From: an uncultured bacterium | Lineage (GTDB): Bacteria > Patescibacteriota > Minisyncoccia > Phycocordibacterales > UBA2100 | Assembly: GCA_903824595.1 (NCBI GenBank) | Contig: CAIJXH010000017.1 | Span: 1-49,186 of the forward strand | DNA length: 49,186 nucleotides | Direction of reading: 5' to 3' | Shown: piece after piece, positions 3,478 through 8,074 of the stretch | How positions within the stretch are numbered: position 1 is the first letter of the stretch | Layout of the letters: the number at the start of each line of letters is the position of its first letter | Notes under the pieces: generated by a model | What the model saw: only the letters and a program-made list of their open reading frames with translations | What the model was told of the DNA's origin: nothing | The model's database searches: none | Program-made: the position numbers and the translations under genes

Positions 3478-3639
3478 ATGCAATGGCTTGTCACTGGTCT
3501 GTTTGCGATACCGATCTCCATCGGCGTGTTCGCGGGAGCGATGCCGCTGCTGTATCATGCTGTGCTACAAGGTAGCAACAGTCAGCAAGTCGCGGCGGCT
3601 TCGGAATTCAAAAATCCTGCGGGGGGGGGCGACTCATAG
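3478..3639 (+). CDS. 53-aa N-terminal membrane-anchor segment of the DGR target gene, out of frame at a G9 tract
   Basis: Not in the ORF track. Reads MQWLVTGLFAIPISIGVFAGAMPLLYHAVLQGSNSQQVAAASEFKNPAGGGDS*, with TATACT at 3465-3470 7 nt before the ATG. One extra G joins it in frame to 3744..5657. Confidence 0.75.
   Translation: MQWLVTGLFAIPISIGVFAGAMPLLYHAVLQGSNSQQVAAASEFKNPAGGGDS
3621..3629 (+). repeat. G9 homopolymer at the frameshift point (candidate phase-variation switch)
   Basis: cctgc-GGGGGGGGG-cgactc; G10 or G7 restores one continuous ORF. Confidence 0.75.
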
Positions 3640-5657
3640 CATCTTCGTCTCCTGAAAAGAAATCACTCGCATTCACTTCGGCAACGACAACTCCCAAAAG
3701 CGGAGGACAGACCATTATCAACCAGTATCCCGTCATCGAACGCGTGGAACACCTCAACACCATCACCACGCAAAGCGGCGTTACGCCATCCGACCTCAAC
3801 GCGCTTGAGAACAAGATGCGCTCGCTCATCTCTCTCCAATCCTCCCAACAAGGTGCGCAGACCGCCGCCGTCTCTCAAATGGTCTCCCAATCCCAGAGAA
3901 TAGACAACTTGAGCAATACCACTATCCAAAATCCCACAATCACCGGCGGCTCCATCACGGCCGCTTCTATCGCGGGCACCATCGTCAATGCGATCAACAC
4001 CGACGCCGCGACCATCGACAATCTCACGTCCAACACCGTCACCGCCAGCAATGGCACCTTCACCTACGCCACGACCACGAATCTCGTCGCAACGAATGCA
4101 ACGACCACCAACCTCTCTGCGGTATACGCGTCTTCCGTCCTCTCCACAATCGGCACCCTGAATCTCACCAACGCACTCACACCAGGGAACGGCGGCACCG
4201 GCACCTCGACCCCCGCCTCCCTCGGCAACCTCCTCTCCTGGAACGGCACCACCTACCAAGGCGTCGCCACCTCCTCACTCTTCAACACCGCCAACACCAG
4301 CGTCTCCGGCCTCCTCTCTGCCACCGACTGGAACACCTTCAATGGGAAGCAAGCTGCCGGCTCCTACCTCACCGCTCTCACCGGCGATATCACTGCGACC
4401 GGACCTGGATCAGCGGTAGCAACCTTGGCGATGAACGTCTCCCACTGGTGGACTGCTCTGCAAAACTTCGGCAACGCCAGCACCTCCATGCTCACTGCCA
4501 CCAGTACCGTGTGGTTCACGTCGCTCGCCACTCCCACCGGCACCTTTTTGGCGGTAGATACTACAGGGAAGGTGATCGCGACCACCACGCCCGCCAACTA
4601 CTTCACCAATAGCGGCTCCAACACCTACCTCTCTACTGGCATCAATCTCCTCGTCGGCACCACCACGTCGCTCGCTCCCTTAACGATCTTCAAGACAGCC
4701 GCCTCCGCGCAAGAGCGCATCTCGTACGATGCCACCCGCTATGCCGAGCTCTATACCGACGCCTCCGGCGCGCTCAATCTCAGCGCGACCGGTGCCATCC
4801 TCAACATGCTCAACGGCAACATGTATCTCTGCGACGGCGGCGCGTGCCCGACCACGCCCGTGCAGGGCTACCCGACGTTCGCGAGCCAGGGCAATCTCGT
4901 CTTGGGCAATGCGCTCTATACAAATGCAGTAAATCCGGCTACCTGTCCCTCTGGCATGATTCCCGTACCCGCCTCGCCCGCAAATGGTCAGCAGGGATTC
5001 TGCGTGGACAAATACGAAGCGCAATCATCAAGCGGCAATGAGGTATCGGTGCAAGGCGGCTCGCCGTGGGTATCCATCGCGCAGACCAGCGCGAGAGCCG
5101 AATGCAAGCGCGCCGGCAAGCACCTCATCACGGAGAAAGAGTGGCAGGCGATTGCAAATGATGTCGAGAATGTCGGGTTCAACTGGAACGGCGGTGTCGT
5201 CGGCACCAACCAAATGAGCGACGGTCATTCCGACAACAGCCCCTCATCCGCGCTCGCGACCGCCGCCGACTCCTCGCCCTGCTCTGACACCGGCCAGACC
5301 TGCGACCTTAGTACATGGAACAGCCAACGTCGCGTGTACAAATTATCAAATGGGCAATACATCTGGGACTTCGGCGGCAATGTCTGGGAATGGGTGGATC
5401 AGACGGTTACCAATGACTATCCAATCGTCAACAGCGCGGCGGCTGGATGGCAGGCATGCTCCACAAGCGGCGACGGCGTCTGCGGCAACACGCGCACCAC
5501 CAACGACCAATGGTACCGAGGCGGTTTTGCCACCATTGCGGGCTTCATCCGCGGCGGCAATTGGAACGATGGCGCGATCGATGGTGCGTTCGCGCTGGGT
5601 CTGAACAATTCGCCGTCCGCTGTGGGCACGTCCCTTGGGTTTCGGTGCTCTCGTTGA
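3630..5657 (+). CDS. DGR target-type surface protein: Thr/Asn-rich tail-fibre-like stalk plus C-terminal CLec-fold (FGE-sulfatase) domain
   Basis: Frame is open from the G tract to 5657 (ORF track starts it at GTG 3744). Motifs: CPSGMIPVP, FCVDKYEA, HLITEKEW, IWDFGGNVWEWV, IRGGNW...LGFRCSR*. Confidence 0.88.
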   Translation, partial: RLIASSSPEKKSLAFTSATTTPKSGGQTIINQYPVIERVEHLNTITTQSGVTPSDLNALENKMRSLISLQSSQQGAQTAAVSQMVSQSQRIDNLSNTTIQNPTITGGSITAASIAGTIVNAINTDAATIDNLTSNTVTASNGTFTYATTTNLVATNATTTNLSAVYASSVLSTIGTLNLTNALTPGNGGTGTSTPASLGNLLSWNGTTYQGVATSSLFNTANTSVSGLLSATDWNTFNGKQAAGSYLTALTGDITATGPGSAVATLAMNVSHWWTALQNFGNASTSMLTATSTVWFTSLATPTGTFLAVDTTGKVIATTTPANYFTNSGSNTYLSTGINLLVGTTTSLAPLTIFKTAASAQERISYDATRYAELYTDASGALNLSATGAILNMLNGNMYLCDGGACPTTPVQGYPTFASQGNLVLGNALYTNAVNPATCPSGMIPVPASPANGQQGFCVDKYEAQSSSGNEVSVQGGSPWVSIAQTSARAECKRAGKHLITEKEWQAIANDVENVGFNWNGGVVGTNQMSDGHSDNSPSSALATAADSSPCSDTGQTCDLSTWNSQRRVYKLSNGQYIWDFGGNVWEWVDQTVTNDYPIVNSAAAGWQACSTSGDGVCGNTRTTNDQWYRGGFATIAGFIRGGNWNDGAIDGAFALGLNNSPSAVGTSLGFRCSR
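5550..5657 (+). other. Predicted DGR variable region (VR) and 3' IMH-containing end
   Basis: RGGNWNDGAIDGAFALGLNNSPSAVGTSLGFRCSR*. Codons at the positions expected to vary (aat, aac, gat, atc, ggt, aac, aat, gct, ggc, tcc, ctt) all end in C/T, as expected for derivatives of AAY/ATY template codons. Confidence 0.75.
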
Positions 5658-5671
5658 AGGGGTTACTCTAC

Positions 5672-5700
5672 AATCTTGAATCTATCAATCTATAATCTTG
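5672..5700 (+). repeat. Short tandem 7-8 nt repeat (AATCT core x4)
   Basis: aatcttg aatctatc aatctat aatcttg. Confidence 0.7.
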
Positions 5701-5730
5701 CATTTTGTATCTTCTTCAATCTCTTCCGCT

Positions 5731-5916
5731 ATGTTGCACGACCTCCAAATCTTCCAGAAATCGTATACATTCCTCTTCTGGATAAAACAGGTTACGCAAA
5801 AATTCGCCAAGGCGCACAAGTACGCGCTCGCCACGCGGATTCTTTCTGTCTTCGGCGATCTATGGAAAGTCGGCTCGGGCTTCCGCCCGGTAGCATTGCG
5901 TGAATATTTGACGTGA
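5731..5916 (+). pseudogene. avd: Truncated DGR accessory variability determinant (Avd / four-helix-bundle family); resemblance ends after about 37 aa
   Basis: MLHDLQIFQKSYTFLFWIKQVTQKFAKAHKYALATRI matches the Avd N-terminal pattern LxIFQKxYxxxxW...KFPKxxKYxLxxRI. Unrelated sequence and an early stop follow. It lies directly after the VR-bearing gene. Confidence 0.75.
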
Positions 5917-5930
5917 TATAATCGGATGGT

Positions 5931-6296
5931 ATGAAAGAGAAAAGCAAACAGAAAACGGAGGTGCAGGAGTTGTTTGAGTTTATCCGCGAGCACATGCCGC
6001 TGAAAAGCGAGGTGGCGATGAAAGACGATCTTGCACGATTTGCTACGAAAGATGATCTTGTCGCCATAAAAAGCGATATTGTTGCCATGAAAAGCGATAT
6101 TGTTGCCATGAAAAGCGATCTCACTGAACAAATAGAGGACGTCAAACGATTTGTTACTGACAAACTCGAGCAGAACAAAGAAGAGATCATTGACCGTCTC
6201 ACACCGACCGAAAAAGCGGTAGACAAGGATGTCGTCATGGTCTTGGATCACGAACGCCGCATCCGCATTATCGAAAAACAGTATGCGCGGGCCTAA
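5931..6296 (+). CDS. Small coiled-coil protein with heptad repeats (ATKDDL motif)
   Basis: Clean ORF with extended -10 TGATATAAT 8 nt before the ATG; repeated KSDIVAM heptads. Confidence 0.8.
   Translation: MKEKSKQKTEVQELFEFIREHMPLKSEVAMKDDLARFATKDDLVAIKSDIVAMKSDIVAMKSDLTEQIEDVKRFVTDKLEQNKEEIIDRLTPTEKAVDKDVVMVLDHERRIRIIEKQYARA
6063..6119 (+). repeat. 21-bp in-frame tandem repeat (about 2.7 copies)
   Basis: gccat(a/g)aaaagcgatattgtt x2 plus gccatgaaaagcgat. Confidence 0.9.
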
Positions 6297-6308
6297 TCAT
6301 ATTGAACT

Positions 6309-7115
6309 ATGAAGAGCGAACTTATTAAACGAGCCGTTCACTTCCTCGCCTACAACAACGCGACGGTCGTCGCGCTGGGATTGGTGCTCATCGGCGGGTC
6401 GGCGTTTGCCGCGACGACTGCGTTTACGCCGGAGAACATTCCGCCGGTACCGTCCGTTTTCTCTGCGATTGCTTCCGCGTCGGAGCCGATGGACGCGAGC
6501 ATCCTACTTTCCGCCGACCTTGCCGCGTTTGATTTCGGGACGAAGATCACCGGCGTTTCGGAAACCGACGCGCAGTATGTCGTGAATTATTCTTTGCAAA
6601 CGCTCGCACCAGAAGATGGTGCATGGCGAGGAAGTGAGCGCGATGGCAGTTTCTCCGTCGGGAAAGACGCACTCGGCGATGGTGGGCTTGCTGGATACGC
6701 GCGAGAGAAACTACTGGACATCGAAAACGGCGAGCGTGCATACCTCGCGAGAGCGAAAGAAGCGGAGCAGAAGATCGCCGACGAGCGATCATCTCGTCCG
6801 GCAAATGCTTTCGCTGGTCTCGTCGGACTTTCGCTTGATCAGATTCCCGAGCCGGTCGTCGTGAAGCCCATGCCGGAGCCGGTGCCCGATGTCGCGCTTC
6901 CAATCTCCGCGCCTTCGGTTGTCATGCCAGAGTCGACTTCCGAGTCCGTTTCTGTCGAAACGACGCCCTCCGCGCTTTCGTCTACAGAAGGCGCCGCGAC
7001 GACCACACAGGATATTATTTCTGTCGCGACAACCTCGCCTTCCGATTCAGAAACTGGTTCGTCAGATGCTACGAGTTCGACTCCGCCCGAAGGCGCGACA
7101 TCCGTCACGCTGTAA
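6309..7115 (+). CDS. Membrane-anchored/secreted hypothetical protein with a P/S/T-rich disordered tail
   Basis: N-terminal hydrophobic segment ending AFA; low-complexity C-terminus. Confidence 0.8.
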   Translation: MKSELIKRAVHFLAYNNATVVALGLVLIGGSAFAATTAFTPENIPPVPSVFSAIASASEPMDASILLSADLAAFDFGTKITGVSETDAQYVVNYSLQTLAPEDGAWRGSERDGSFSVGKDALGDGGLAGYAREKLLDIENGERAYLARAKEAEQKIADERSSRPANAFAGLVGLSLDQIPEPVVVKPMPEPVPDVALPISAPSVVMPESTSESVSVETTPSALSSTEGAATTTQDIISVATTSPSDSETGSSDATSSTPPEGATSVTL

Positions 7116-7165
7116 AAGAAAAACAACGCCTCGCACGTTTTCACTCCACGGGGTAGTATAGGAAG

Positions 7166-8074
7166 ATGAAGAAAGTCGTAGTAACCGGTGGGGCGGGATT
7201 TGTCGGGAGTAACTTGGTGCGCGAGCTTCTTGCGCAGGGATGGGATGTGCGCAGCGTCGACAACTATTCGGCGGGGAAAATTCCGAGTCGTTTTTTCGAC
7301 GGCGCAACCTACATCGAGGCCGATATACGCGCGACAAAAGACATTGAAAAGGTGTGTATCGGAGCCGACGTGGTGTTTCATACGGCCGCCAAGCCGCGCG
7401 TTCAGTTCTCGATAGACGAGCCGCTCGACACGACCGACAACAACATCACGGGTACCGTGTCGGTGTTGAAGGCTGCAACGGATGCGGGTGTGTCTCGCGT
7501 CGTGTATTCAAGTTCGGGTTCGGCATACGGCGCACAGGAAACGTTGCCGCTCACCGAAGACATGCCTGCCGCGCCGGTACATCCGTATGGTGTGCAAAAG
7601 TACGCCGCGGAACTGTTTGTGAGCATGTGGCCGTCTATCTACAAGCTCGAAACGGTCTCGCTTCGCTATTTCAATATCTATGGTCCTGGCCTTGATCCAA
7701 GCGGTGCATACGCGCTCGCCATCGGACGATTCATCACTGCGCGCAAAGAAGGAAAACCAATCACTATCTATGGCGACGGTACGATCACGCGCGATTTTAC
7801 TCATGTGCGTGACGTGGTGCGTGCCAATATCTTGGCAGCGGAGAGTGGGAAAGTAGGAAAGGGTGAAGTGATCAATATTGGTGCCGGGCGCAACGTTACG
7901 ATACAGAAACTTGCCGAAATGTTTGGAGGCGAGATCGTCTATGGGGCGCCGCGCATTGAAGCACATGATTCACTTGCTAATAATCAAAAGGCTAAAGAGC
8001 TCCTCGGATGGGAGCCGAAAGAAAATCTGGAAGATGGTATCGCAGAATTAAAACAATTATTTGGCATCGCATGA
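7166..8074 (+). CDS. NAD-dependent nucleotide-sugar epimerase/dehydratase (extended SDR)
   Basis: VTGGAGFVGS, YGVQK (YxxxK), LRYFNIYGP and TRDFTHV motifs. Confidence 0.93.
   Translation: MKKVVVTGGAGFVGSNLVRELLAQGWDVRSVDNYSAGKIPSRFFDGATYIEADIRATKDIEKVCIGADVVFHTAAKPRVQFSIDEPLDTTDNNITGTVSVLKAATDAGVSRVVYSSSGSAYGAQETLPLTEDMPAAPVHPYGVQKYAAELFVSMWPSIYKLETVSLRYFNIYGPGLDPSGAYALAIGRFITARKEGKPITIYGDGTITRDFTHVRDVVRANILAAESGKVGKGEVINIGAGRNVTIQKLAEMFGGEIVYGAPRIEAHDSLANNQKAKELLGWEPKENLEDGIAELKQLFGIA

Follow-up and report, generated by a model that had tools for sequence, protein, structure and literature searches.

A putative DGR remnant in a Patescibacteria genome: a variable region still in place, its diversifying machinery apparently lost

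The DGR prototype is that of Bordetella phage BPP-1, in which the order is mtd-avd-TR-brt. Orphan DGR targets are already in print: the available text of a study of Treponema denticola isolates reports FGE-sulfatase-type target genes with no TR and no RT (PMC4891356), and that of a paper covering Nostoc describes all3226 as having 'remnant TR-VR homology' with no RT nearby (PMC7517822). TaqVP of Thermus aquaticus (PDB 5VF4) is presented, in the available part of its report, as a CLec-fold DGR variable protein (PMC6328139). A modelling preprint, in the portion available, argues that DGRs cease to work in environments that are stable or whose change is too slow (10.64898/2026.02.18.706561).

We analysed a window of 49,186 nt (the whole stretch of DNA studied here; contig CAIJXH010000017.1, positions 1 to 49,186, forward strand, assembly GCA_903824595.1), which comes from a draft genome of 770,876 bases in 22 contigs that is 97.62% complete (G000). 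We read one locus in this window, with a probability of about 0.88, as the remnant of a chromosomal DGR in an ultra-small genome of the Patescibacteria/CPR type, in which the variable region (VR) is frozen and the machinery has been lost. The features of the locus are as follows.

3478..3639, plus strand: short ORF of 53 aa, out of frame with the target body and encoding one hydrophobic helix
3621..3629, plus strand: G9 homopolymer at which the two frames meet; the 49-kb window has no other G/C run of at least 7
3744..5657, plus strand: target gene of the DGR, 637 codons long when counted from its first start codon, ending GFRCSR-stop
~5538-5654 (or 5655; ~118 nt), plus strand: VR at the C-terminal end of the target, its template now missing, placed by alignment to relatives' TRs
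5658..5730, no strand: VR-avd spacer, 73 nt, 34% G+C
5731..5841, plus strand: avd stub, codons 1-37, followed in the same ORF (61 codons, to 5916) by unrelated sequence
5842..6308, plus strand: replacement DNA, 467 nt at the place of the relatives' avd 3' part, TR and RT
5931..6296, plus strand: gene for a small coiled-coil protein of 121 aa, from an unnamed family
6309..7115, plus strand: gene X, a conserved downstream neighbour at the far edge of the lost cassette, whose 268-aa product has a hydrophobic helix at its N terminus

The first-pass annotation had proposed that an avd-TR-RT block was deleted here, and comparison with relatives bears out the loss. In 12 of the 15 informative target-family loci an avd and the locus's own TR lie at the homologous place behind the homologous VR, and the RT is present in all ten of these whose contigs reach far enough. 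The other three informative loci are L015, which is collapsed, and L021 and L023, which are unclear. In L010 (CALREW010000002.1, a Candidatus Nomurabacteria MAG) and L011 (CAYRQI010000001.1) the order is target, avd (112 aa, bAvd E 4.9e-25), TR, RT (RVT_1 E 8.3e-16) and gene X, and their target C-terminal domains are 83% and 68% identical to that of the window. Gene X of the window is 47% and 39% identical to the genes directly after the RT in L010 and L011; L016 and L019 also have a homologue behind the RT, and L015 has one behind its deletion scar, i.e. it is the next gene after the cassette in five loci, four of them intact and one collapsed. Homology and synteny with the intact relatives indicate that the 3' part of avd, the TR and the RT have gone from the window locus.

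The relatives' DGRs are, or were, active: the mismatches between their own TRs and VRs lie mostly at TR adenines (17 of 20 in L010 and 14 of 16 in L011). Where the local TR/VR alignments are clean, mismatches fall at 14 of 25 adenines and 0 of 90 other bases in L011, and at 13 of 27 and 1 of 91 in L014. More mismatches at bases other than adenine were found in L022, L025 and L029 (12-22 of ~111), an excess that we attribute to alignments overrunning the TR.

L015 has lost the same block by a different deletion, flanked by microhomology, and shows an independent breakpoint. In this locus avd breaks off at codon ~53 and runs straight into the final ~115 nt of the RT ORF; ~10 nt at the junction can be aligned to either side, and the stretch equivalent to L010 6979-8513 is missing. 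L015 has also gained a HicA/HicB pair between the VR and avd.

The target consists of a long Thr/Ser/Gly/Ala-rich region followed by a putative C-terminal FGE-sulfatase/C-type-lectin-like domain, which scored just under the cut-off against Pfam PF03781 (E 6.6e-5; 23.1 bits, cut-off 23.3). Over its C-terminal 245 aa the target shares 63-85% identity with the corresponding domain of 18 family loci (L010, L011 and L014-L030, less a 73-aa piece of L030 at 63%), and strong homology links it to targets with a TR of their own. When a profile of 14 homologues was compared with solved structures, the best match was 5VF4, i.e. TaqVP (E 0.0012), a weak and partial match covering profile positions 47-161; SUMF2 was also matched (E 0.012). 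A single-sequence PDB search gave weak matches to the FGE family (E 0.04-0.8), and an AlphaFold model of the C-terminal 245 aa from a 14-row alignment had a mean pLDDT of 40.1, too poor for fold comparison.

That the target ends in a typical VR, as had been claimed from the sequence of the window, was confirmed: its last ~118 nt align to relatives' TRs, with the mismatches concentrated at TR adenines. The window's own TR being gone, this pattern was measured against relatives' TRs only. The VR is 70-80% identical to the 12 TRs compared, and 86-87.5% identical to those of L010 and L011 over 5538-5617. Across the 12 comparisons it differs at 48-57% of TR adenines (11-21 of 23-37) and at 12-23% of other bases (11-26 of 88-114); with the L011 TR, for example, mismatches fall at 13 of 25 adenines and 14 of 93 other bases. 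Fisher tests gave an excess of mismatches at adenines for every one of the 12 TRs (p 5.5e-5 to 6e-3), although these tests are not independent, the TRs being related to one another. At the protein level, variability over 14 homologues is limited to the adenine-derived VR positions.

The codons of the VR were compared with the L011 TR by eye. The TR predicted by the first-pass annotation had an adenine-bearing codon at 11 places, and all 11 are AAY or ATC in the L011 TR. The accompanying claim that every variable codon keeps C or T as its third base holds for the 11 codons that align to AAY/ATY in that TR, but two further codons, gcg and gtg (ACG in the TR), end in G and had been missed.

The window VR differs from its nearest TRs at 12.5-18% of bases other than adenine, compared with 2.5-7.5% for those TRs among themselves. 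Drift after the loss could explain these extra differences; they could equally reflect a lost TR from another cassette lineage. The avd stub and the 3' flank of the VR are closer to the L016/L019/L024 type than to the L010/L014 type. Dating the loss by synonymous drift in the last 21 nt of the VR was considered and rejected: these third positions are precisely where TRs of separate lineages diverge, and what the window has there may be no more than a copy of its own lost TR.

Behind the VR, the reported Avd-like ORF 73 nt after the target is present as described, with exactly 73 nt between the stop codon (5655-5657) and the ATG at 5731. This spacer aligns weakly to the same spacer of L016, L024, L014 and L017. 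A sigma-70-like site at 5667-5696 was no better than chance, and neither promoters nor terminators stood out from chance in scans of 5500-6400. The further observation that likeness to Avd fades after about 37 codons, near 5841, agrees with tblastn, in which the Avd proteins of L010 and L011 match the window through residues 1-37 only (5731-5841; 38% identity; E 7e-6 against the window and 1e-4 against the genome). The stub is 51% identical to the Avd of L024 over the same residues; with the closer Avd of the L016/L019 type the BLAST alignment stretches to residue 60, the identity sitting in the first ~37-46 residues. In an HMM search the stub matched Pfam bAvd and 23S_rRNA_IVP at profile positions 2-36 of ~107, but with E values of 0.012-0.014 that lie below the cut-off. 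Such a score is as expected for one third of the domain, full-length Avd proteins of relatives matching bAvd at E 4.9e-25 and 3.1e-20. Similarity to relatives at the DNA level stops at 5822, and the exact left breakpoint lies somewhere within ~5822-5868. The 61-codon ORF is a pseudogene.

The loss was not a clean deletion: a block of about 1.7 kb in relatives (L010 6930-8628) is replaced in the window by 467 nt of other DNA. Neither at the DNA nor at the protein level does this replacement resemble any of the 21 related loci with which it was compared, and it contains no RT fragment. It carries the gene for the 121-aa coiled-coil protein, with three 21-nt tandem repeats at 6054-6119. A paralogue of 165 aa is found on another contig of the same genome (C7; 42% identity over residues 40-121, E 2.7e-13), and an exhaustive HMMER search with the 121-aa protein found 124 library proteins at E <= 1e-3, three of them, including the query, at E <= 1e-10. 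Pfam gave no match at cut-off for the 121-aa protein, ten sampled matches or the paralogue. A word-based search came back empty for this protein, which reflects its limited sensitivity; orphan status was rejected, since tblastn in the genome and HMMER found relatives.

A junction of this kind could be produced by a chimeric assembly or a collapsed repeat, with the cassette still present in the real genome, and VR/TR repeats and strain mixtures do often break or mis-join metagenome assemblies. We compared positions 4400-7400 of the window with Logan contigs of three runs from two studies (X1, X2 and X3), and all three cross the left junction at 5841 with no differences from the window. The X1 contig covers the whole stretch, but X1 may be the source sample of the window, and independent support therefore comes from X2 (from another study) and X3. 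Contigs of X2 (5478-5948 and 5929-6371) span the replacement; those of X3 (5396-5715, 5712-5989 and 6221-6947) leave gaps at 5990-6054 and 6206-6220. All three runs cross into gene X, X3 through its 6221-6947 contig. Moreover, collapse of the VR onto the TR would drop avd and leave the RT in place, the reverse of what is observed, and the 121-aa protein is recorded on four contigs in the protein collection. With separately assembled contigs of X2 and X3 agreeing on the junction, we regard an artefact as extremely improbable.

One further run, X4, from a third study, holds a 151-nt contig of depth 2 that joins 5702 to 5909, skipping the whole stub, and is ~92% identical to the window on its left side. 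It may derive from a relative with a further deletion and is too thin to build on.

The first-pass annotation had found no second copy of the VR and no RT in 49 kb, and the same holds for the whole 770,876-base genome. The best match to PF00078 in the genome had E 0.067 and 11.7 bits, with a cut-off of 29.6, and tblastn with the DGR RTs of L010 and L011 gave nothing at E < 0.4. A search for DGR RTs across the order found them in 140 of 400 other genomes and gave no candidates in this one; such a patchy distribution fits frequent gain and loss. Searched against all 770,876 bases, the VR matched only itself, the next best matches being 17-19 nt long at E > 1. The genome contains no complete Avd (about 110 aa, four-helix bundle), and the stub is its sole avd-like sequence. 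Among 36 genomes of the same genus there was no syntenic copy of the locus; two encode FGE-type proteins, only 33-34% identical, and in one of them (G036, locus L009) no DGR parts were found behind the FGE-type gene.

These searches bear on the suggestion that the target is served in trans, i.e. that the VR is still diversified by the RT, TR and Avd of a DGR on unassembled DNA, a phage or a plasmid, the local cassette being one lost copy. DGRs can act on remote targets, and in T. denticola the available text reports several remote target genes per TR (PMC4891356). Some genomes of the order have several RT matches (up to seven in one), the genome analysed here is a draft in which regions of this type would assemble badly, and run X3 holds contigs of other organisms that are VR/TR-like at 5577 and avd-like at 5773-5819. 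Nevertheless, four different queries found no RT, TR or second avd in the assembled bases, and the VR is identical in the contigs of three runs from two studies, although contigs lose rare variants and this identity is compatible with VR variants at low frequency. In addition, a TR acting in trans would need to match this VR, and the nearest ones found anywhere show differences at 12-23% of positions other than adenine. Because a genome that is 97.6% complete lacks the RT, the TR and any other avd, and because contigs of all three runs carry the same VR, diversification in trans is disfavoured; we consider it improbable, and infer that no cassette acts in trans from unassembled DNA.

The state of the target gene bears on whether the loss of the cassette was part of a wider decay. 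The ORF at 3478..3639 most likely encodes the genuine N-terminal signal anchor of the target, and joining it to the target frame would require one more G, or two fewer, in the G9 tract. The reading frame of the long ORF opens at 3579 but contains no ATG, GTG or TTG until 3744, and homology to relatives' targets is already seen at 3675-4232 (tblastn, 30% identity, E 0.003). A simple repeat is present in all five distinct loci whose contigs include the 5' end of the target. The window (G9) and L011, with (CT)11, are out of frame; L010, with (CT)10, L016 and L026, with (AG)21, and L018, with G12, are in frame. The repeats take three forms (poly-G, CT and AG) at positions that are not identical, which suggests repeated independent origin.

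It could be argued that the whole locus is decaying: the anchor and the body lie in different frames, the body lacks a start codon before 3744 though homology begins near 3675, and a target that is not made would lose its cassette as part of gene death, with no useful variant being fixed. However, the 637-codon body contains no stops, one extra G restores the frame, and the C-terminal domain has a protein identity of 81-84% but a DNA identity of only 74-79% to those of L010, L014 and L015, which indicates purifying selection on the domain for most of its history. Comparable repeats, in and out of frame, in relatives with working DGRs suggest reversible switching and not death, and the length of the G9 tract could also be a homopolymer error of the assembly. 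We therefore judge decay of the whole locus to be rather unlikely. Offered tentatively, and judged less likely than not, is the idea that this target family, one of Patescibacteria surface proteins, has two separate layers of variation, DGR rewriting of the ligand-binding tip and on/off switching by a slippage-prone 5' repeat, of which the window would have dropped the first and kept the second (G9, currently off).

Returning to our main reading, a DGR remnant with a frozen VR, the ancestral order would have been target(VR)-avd-TR-RT, with gene X next in line. One or more rearrangements would then have taken out avd from about codon 38 on, together with the TR and the RT, and left the 467 nt of other DNA with its copy of the small coiled-coil gene family; this may have been a deletion followed by an insertion, or a single replacement. 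Since there would be no mutagenic retrohoming without TR RNA and RT, the VR would be a fossil of the last homing event, changing now through ordinary mutation only. Of the two outcomes envisaged by the first-pass annotation, service in trans is disfavoured as described above, and the freezing of a selected variant is just one reading; neutral decay fits equally well, because the G9 tract puts the 5' end of the target out of frame.

The locus offers a clean, delimited natural loss of a DGR, whose edges are set by the avd stub and the conserved gene X. It also carries a warning for annotation, as a VR-like C-terminus with an Avd-like ORF does not imply an active DGR. Losses of this kind provide the field evidence for the turnover of DGRs argued in the available text of the modelling preprint (10.64898/2026.02.18.706561).

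The kind of decay seen here, an orphan target with DGR parts deleted, is ordinary and already known. The window shares with the DGRs of its intact relatives L010 and L011 the target family, a VR at the end of a putative CLec/FGE-type domain, adenine-derived VR codons, an avd directly behind the VR and the same downstream neighbour; it differs from them in that the TR, the RT and the part of avd starting at about codon 38 are missing, with the gene for the 121-aa coiled-coil protein in their place. With the orphans of T. denticola and Nostoc, as far as the available text of those reports describes them, it shares a VR-bearing target that has outlived its diversifying components. Unlike those orphans as there described, the window retains an avd stub in place, has syntenic relatives that delimit the lost block, and has in L015 a second breakpoint.

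The window is the whole of contig C17 of genome G000, which comprises 770,876 bases in 22 contigs and is 97.62% complete. The locus under study consists of the following features.

3744..5657, + strand: target ORF of a diversity-generating retroelement (DGR), 637 codons, C-terminus GFRCSR-stop, with the variable region (VR) at 5538-5654
5655-5657, + strand: stop codon of the target
5731, + strand: start of an avd-like ORF of 61 codons, 73 nt past the target stop
5931..6296, + strand: coiled-coil ORF, 121 codons
6309..7115, + strand: gene X, the conserved downstream neighbor, 268 codons

The C-terminal 245 residues of the target gave a borderline match to the Pfam FGE-sulfatase family (E 6.6e-5, 23.1 bits vs a cut-off of 23.3). 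The first-pass annotation had placed an avd-like ORF 73 nt behind the VR-bearing target, and this was confirmed; in the profile search that it had proposed, the first ~37 residues of the 61-codon ORF aligned with the start of two profiles, bAvd and 23S-rRNA-IVS (E 0.012-0.014; positions 2-36 of ~107).

We searched species-representative genomes with the C-terminal domain of the target and obtained two close loci, L010 (from a Candidatus Nomurabacteria MAG) and L011, whose target domains are 83% and 68% identical to that of the window; a metagenome search contributed 17 more loci. The gene order in both L010 and L011 is target (ending in GFRCSR), avd, template repeat (TR), reverse transcriptase (RT) and a gene X homologue. 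The Avd of the intact cassette has 112 aa (bAvd E 4.9e-25), the TR is a non-coding duplicate of the VR, the RT matches RVT_1 (E 8.3e-16), and the gene directly after the RT shares 47% (L010) or 39% (L011) identity with window 6309..7115. Fifteen close relatives were readable behind the target, a count that excludes L018, L026, L027 and L030 (contigs too short behind the target), L012 (31% protein identity and no DGR parts) and L013 (a chance match of 23 residues). Avd and TR are present in 12 of the 15 (L010, L011, L014, L016, L017, L019, L020, L022, L024, L025, L028 and L029), and the RT is also found in all ten of these loci whose contig extends far enough, i.e. relatives keep avd-TR-RT behind a homologous target, which is what the proposed synteny check was to establish. 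One relative, L015, is collapsed, and the remaining two are ambiguous, namely L021, where avd diverges after ~38 codons, 70 nt short of the contig end, and L023. Behind the homologous target of L023 (700-1555) a 124-aa four-helix protein of the 23S-rRNA-IVS family replaces the family's usual Avd, and its first ~24 codons recur as a direct repeat joined to what by eye is a putative C-terminal piece of an RT; no TR was found on the contig, which ends there. L023 is possibly another rearranged cassette.

By sequence comparison, the window VR is a genuine DGR VR. TR/VR mismatches fall at TR adenines in 17 of 20 cases in L010 and 14 of 16 in L011, and the same bias is seen in clean local TR/VR alignments; L022, L025 and L029 have higher numbers of non-A mismatches, which we attribute to alignments extending beyond the TR. 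The TRs of L010 and L011 align with window 5538-5617 at 86-87.5% identity. When the window VR was compared with each of 12 TRs, mismatches affected 48-57% of TR adenines and 12-23% of the remaining bases (p 5.5e-5 to 6e-3 by Fisher tests, which are not independent because the TRs are related). An alignment of 14 homologous proteins is near-invariant before the VR and then variable where the TRs read AAY. The typical VR described at the target end by the first-pass annotation is therefore upheld. In its predicted TR, all 11 of the 11 adenine-bearing codons are AAY or ATC in the TR of L011, but two ACG codons were missed (by eye).

The Avd proteins of L010 and L011 matched the window by tblastn only at 5731-5841 (residues 1-37, 38% identity), in agreement with the earlier statement that Avd resemblance is lost after about 37 codons near 5841, and the RT proteins of these loci gave no tblastn match in the window. 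The stub is closer to the Avd type of L024 and L016/L019 (51% over residues 1-37; 42% over a stretched 60 residues). As DNA similarity to any relative ends at 5822, these limits at the stub place the left breakpoint at ~5822-5868, best at 5841/5842; right-hand homology restarts in gene X from 6324 (ORF start 6309). The interval that begins at avd codon 38 and ends with the stop of the RT spans ~1.7 kb in L010 (6930-8628); its counterpart in the window is 467 nt (5842-6308) without similarity to any cassette part. This difference supports the proposal that an avd-TR-RT block was deleted, and our confidence in reading the locus as a dead DGR whose VR is frozen is about 0.88.

The alternative, that the VR is diversified in trans by a DGR elsewhere, is very improbable, because genome G000 contains no second VR-like sequence, no RVT_1 match better than E 0.067, no bAvd-like sequence besides the stub and no tblastn match to two DGR RTs. 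A DGR RT search across the order, which detected RTs in 140 of the 400 other genomes, likewise gave 0 candidates in G000. The absence of TR and RT claimed for the window thus extends to all assembled bases of the genome.

We compared the window with public sequencing runs as Logan contigs. Run X1, possibly the source sample, has one contig over 4400-7400, run X2, from a separate study, covers 5478-5948 and 5929-6371, and run X3 covers 5396-5715, 5712-5989 and 6221-6947, all with 0 differences, so the joins in the window are not an artefact of a single assembly. The consensus VR is identical in the three runs, but contigs cannot reveal rare variants and this is therefore weak evidence for freezing. 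Loose ends in X3 at window 5773 and 5819 involve a contig of another organism from the same pond, which has 47 nt in common with the stub and reads like a full-length L016-type Avd on both flanks of the match; a close relative with intact avd may co-occur in this pond.

L015, whose target domain is 83% identical to that of the window (81% in global alignment), is a second DGR collapse, independent of the first. It aligns with L010 as follows.

L015 1-1081: L010 target and spacer
L015 1602-1761: L010 avd codons 1-53
L015 1752-2449: last ~115 nt of the L010 RT reading frame, and gene X

The avd and RT-end pieces overlap by 10 nt, which suggests that L015 lost the equivalent of L010 6979-8513 through a deletion flanked by microhomology. 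Between VR and avd, a 520-nt insertion (1082-1601) carries a toxin-antitoxin pair on the opposite strand, HicA (E 2.2e-16) and HicB-like (E 6.7e-13) in Pfam. A 151-nt contig of run X4 (depth 2), in which 5702 is joined to 5909 and the stub is absent, hints at a further-reduced relative and is too thin to count.

The ORF at 5931..6296, which encodes a coiled-coil protein and contains three 21-nt tandem repeats, is a real small gene. A word-based protein search with its 121-aa product found nothing beyond the query, whereas an exhaustive HMMER search gave 124 matches at E <= 1e-3, of which 3 reached <= 1e-10, query counted. A 165-aa paralogue on contig C7 of the same genome (12818-13315; L031 2319-2816) shares 42% identity over residues 40-121 (E 2.7e-13), with 93 nt at 75% DNA identity, and adjoins a putative Obg/YchF-like GTPase gene (read from translation by eye). 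The Pfam cut-off was reached by none of the query, ten sampled HMMER matches and the paralogue. The family thus has two members in G000, whose C-terminal ~40 residues are conserved; the 21-nt repeats belong to the copy in the window.

Of non-A sites, 12.5-18% differ between the window VR and its nearest TRs, vs 2.5-7.5% among those TRs themselves. We do not read this excess as drift after the loss, because the VR 3' flank, spacer and stub resemble L016/L019/L024 and the scaffold L010/L014/L015, and because TRs of different lineages differ at exactly these synonymous sites. Across the target scaffold (4648-5600) the nearest relatives are L014, L010 and L015 (81-85% protein identity), and 5602-5841 has more in common with cassettes of the L016/L019/L024 type; the locus is possibly a mosaic, perhaps because lineages have exchanged cassettes.

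Homology to the targets of relatives starts near 3675, yet the target body has no start codon between 3579 and 3744. Simple repeats are found here and in relatives.

Window 3478..3639, + strand: anchor ORF, 53 codons, membrane helix, ends just past the G9 run
Window 3621-3629, + strand: G9 run; G10 or G7 would fuse the anchor ORF to the target body
L010 3754-3773: target (CT)10, in frame
L011 3719-3740: target (CT)11, out of frame; loss of one unit would restore the frame
L016 and L026 1346-1387: target (AG)21, in frame
L018 3658-3669: target G12, in frame
L019 2275-2285: RT G11, mid-gene, RT out of frame
L024 2598-2635: RT (AG)19, mid-gene, RT out of frame
L010 8390-8405: RT G16, near 3' end
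L011 8454-8461: RT G8, near 3' end
L028 2033-2040: RT G8, near 3' end

The G9, the sole G/C run of at least 7 in the window, may represent the 'off' state of a phase-variable gene, a frameshift that has become fixed, or an assembly error in homopolymer length. A simple repeat lies early in the target coding sequence of every relative with the target 5' end on its contig, with three repeat types at non-identical places, and we regard these repeats as candidate switches that turn DGR target genes on and off. Across 21 related loci and 12 kb of the window, each of the 11 remaining tracts above threshold is located either in the 5' end of a target or within, or at the end of, an RT gene. The mid-gene tracts of L019 and L024 occupy the same spot between two conserved RT motifs, where L016, with its RT in frame, has no repeat. 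Among the 30 highest-ranking RT loci in the order (L032-L061), all but L032 have a sense-strand G8-G14 (26 loci) or (GA)10-15 (3 loci) whose end lies 1-64 nt ahead of the first RT residue in the alignment, behind a small hairpin in several (by eye), and their 111 kb contain just two further tracts. Several other G/C runs of 8-10 lie within ~20 codons of long-frame starts on G000 contigs C3, C4, C11, C16 and C19 (e.g. C11:873, C16:13510, C19:3759), a hint that repeat gating may extend to further genes. At title and abstract level, we found no publication combining DGRs with phase variation, homopolymers or simple repeats.

The decay of DGRs has been described before. In a large survey (PMC5758913), the terms sought for orphan targets after DGR loss did not occur in that sense. 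Excerpts of other reports describe T. denticola isolates in which 2-6 target genes of the FGE type coexist with 0 TR/RT, several such genes being termed core-DGR remnants (PMC4891356), remnant TR-VR homology at Nostoc all3226 and a degraded cassette in Anabaena sp. 90 (PMC7517822), a classification of DGRs as active or inactive from SNVs (PMC8144416), and, in a modeling preprint, DGRs made inoperant by a stable or too slowly changing environment (10.64898/2026.02.18.706561). The observation in the window is confirmed and its interpretation as a deletion is supported; as orphan targets after DGR loss are already in print, the finding is the correct reading of an ordinary event.
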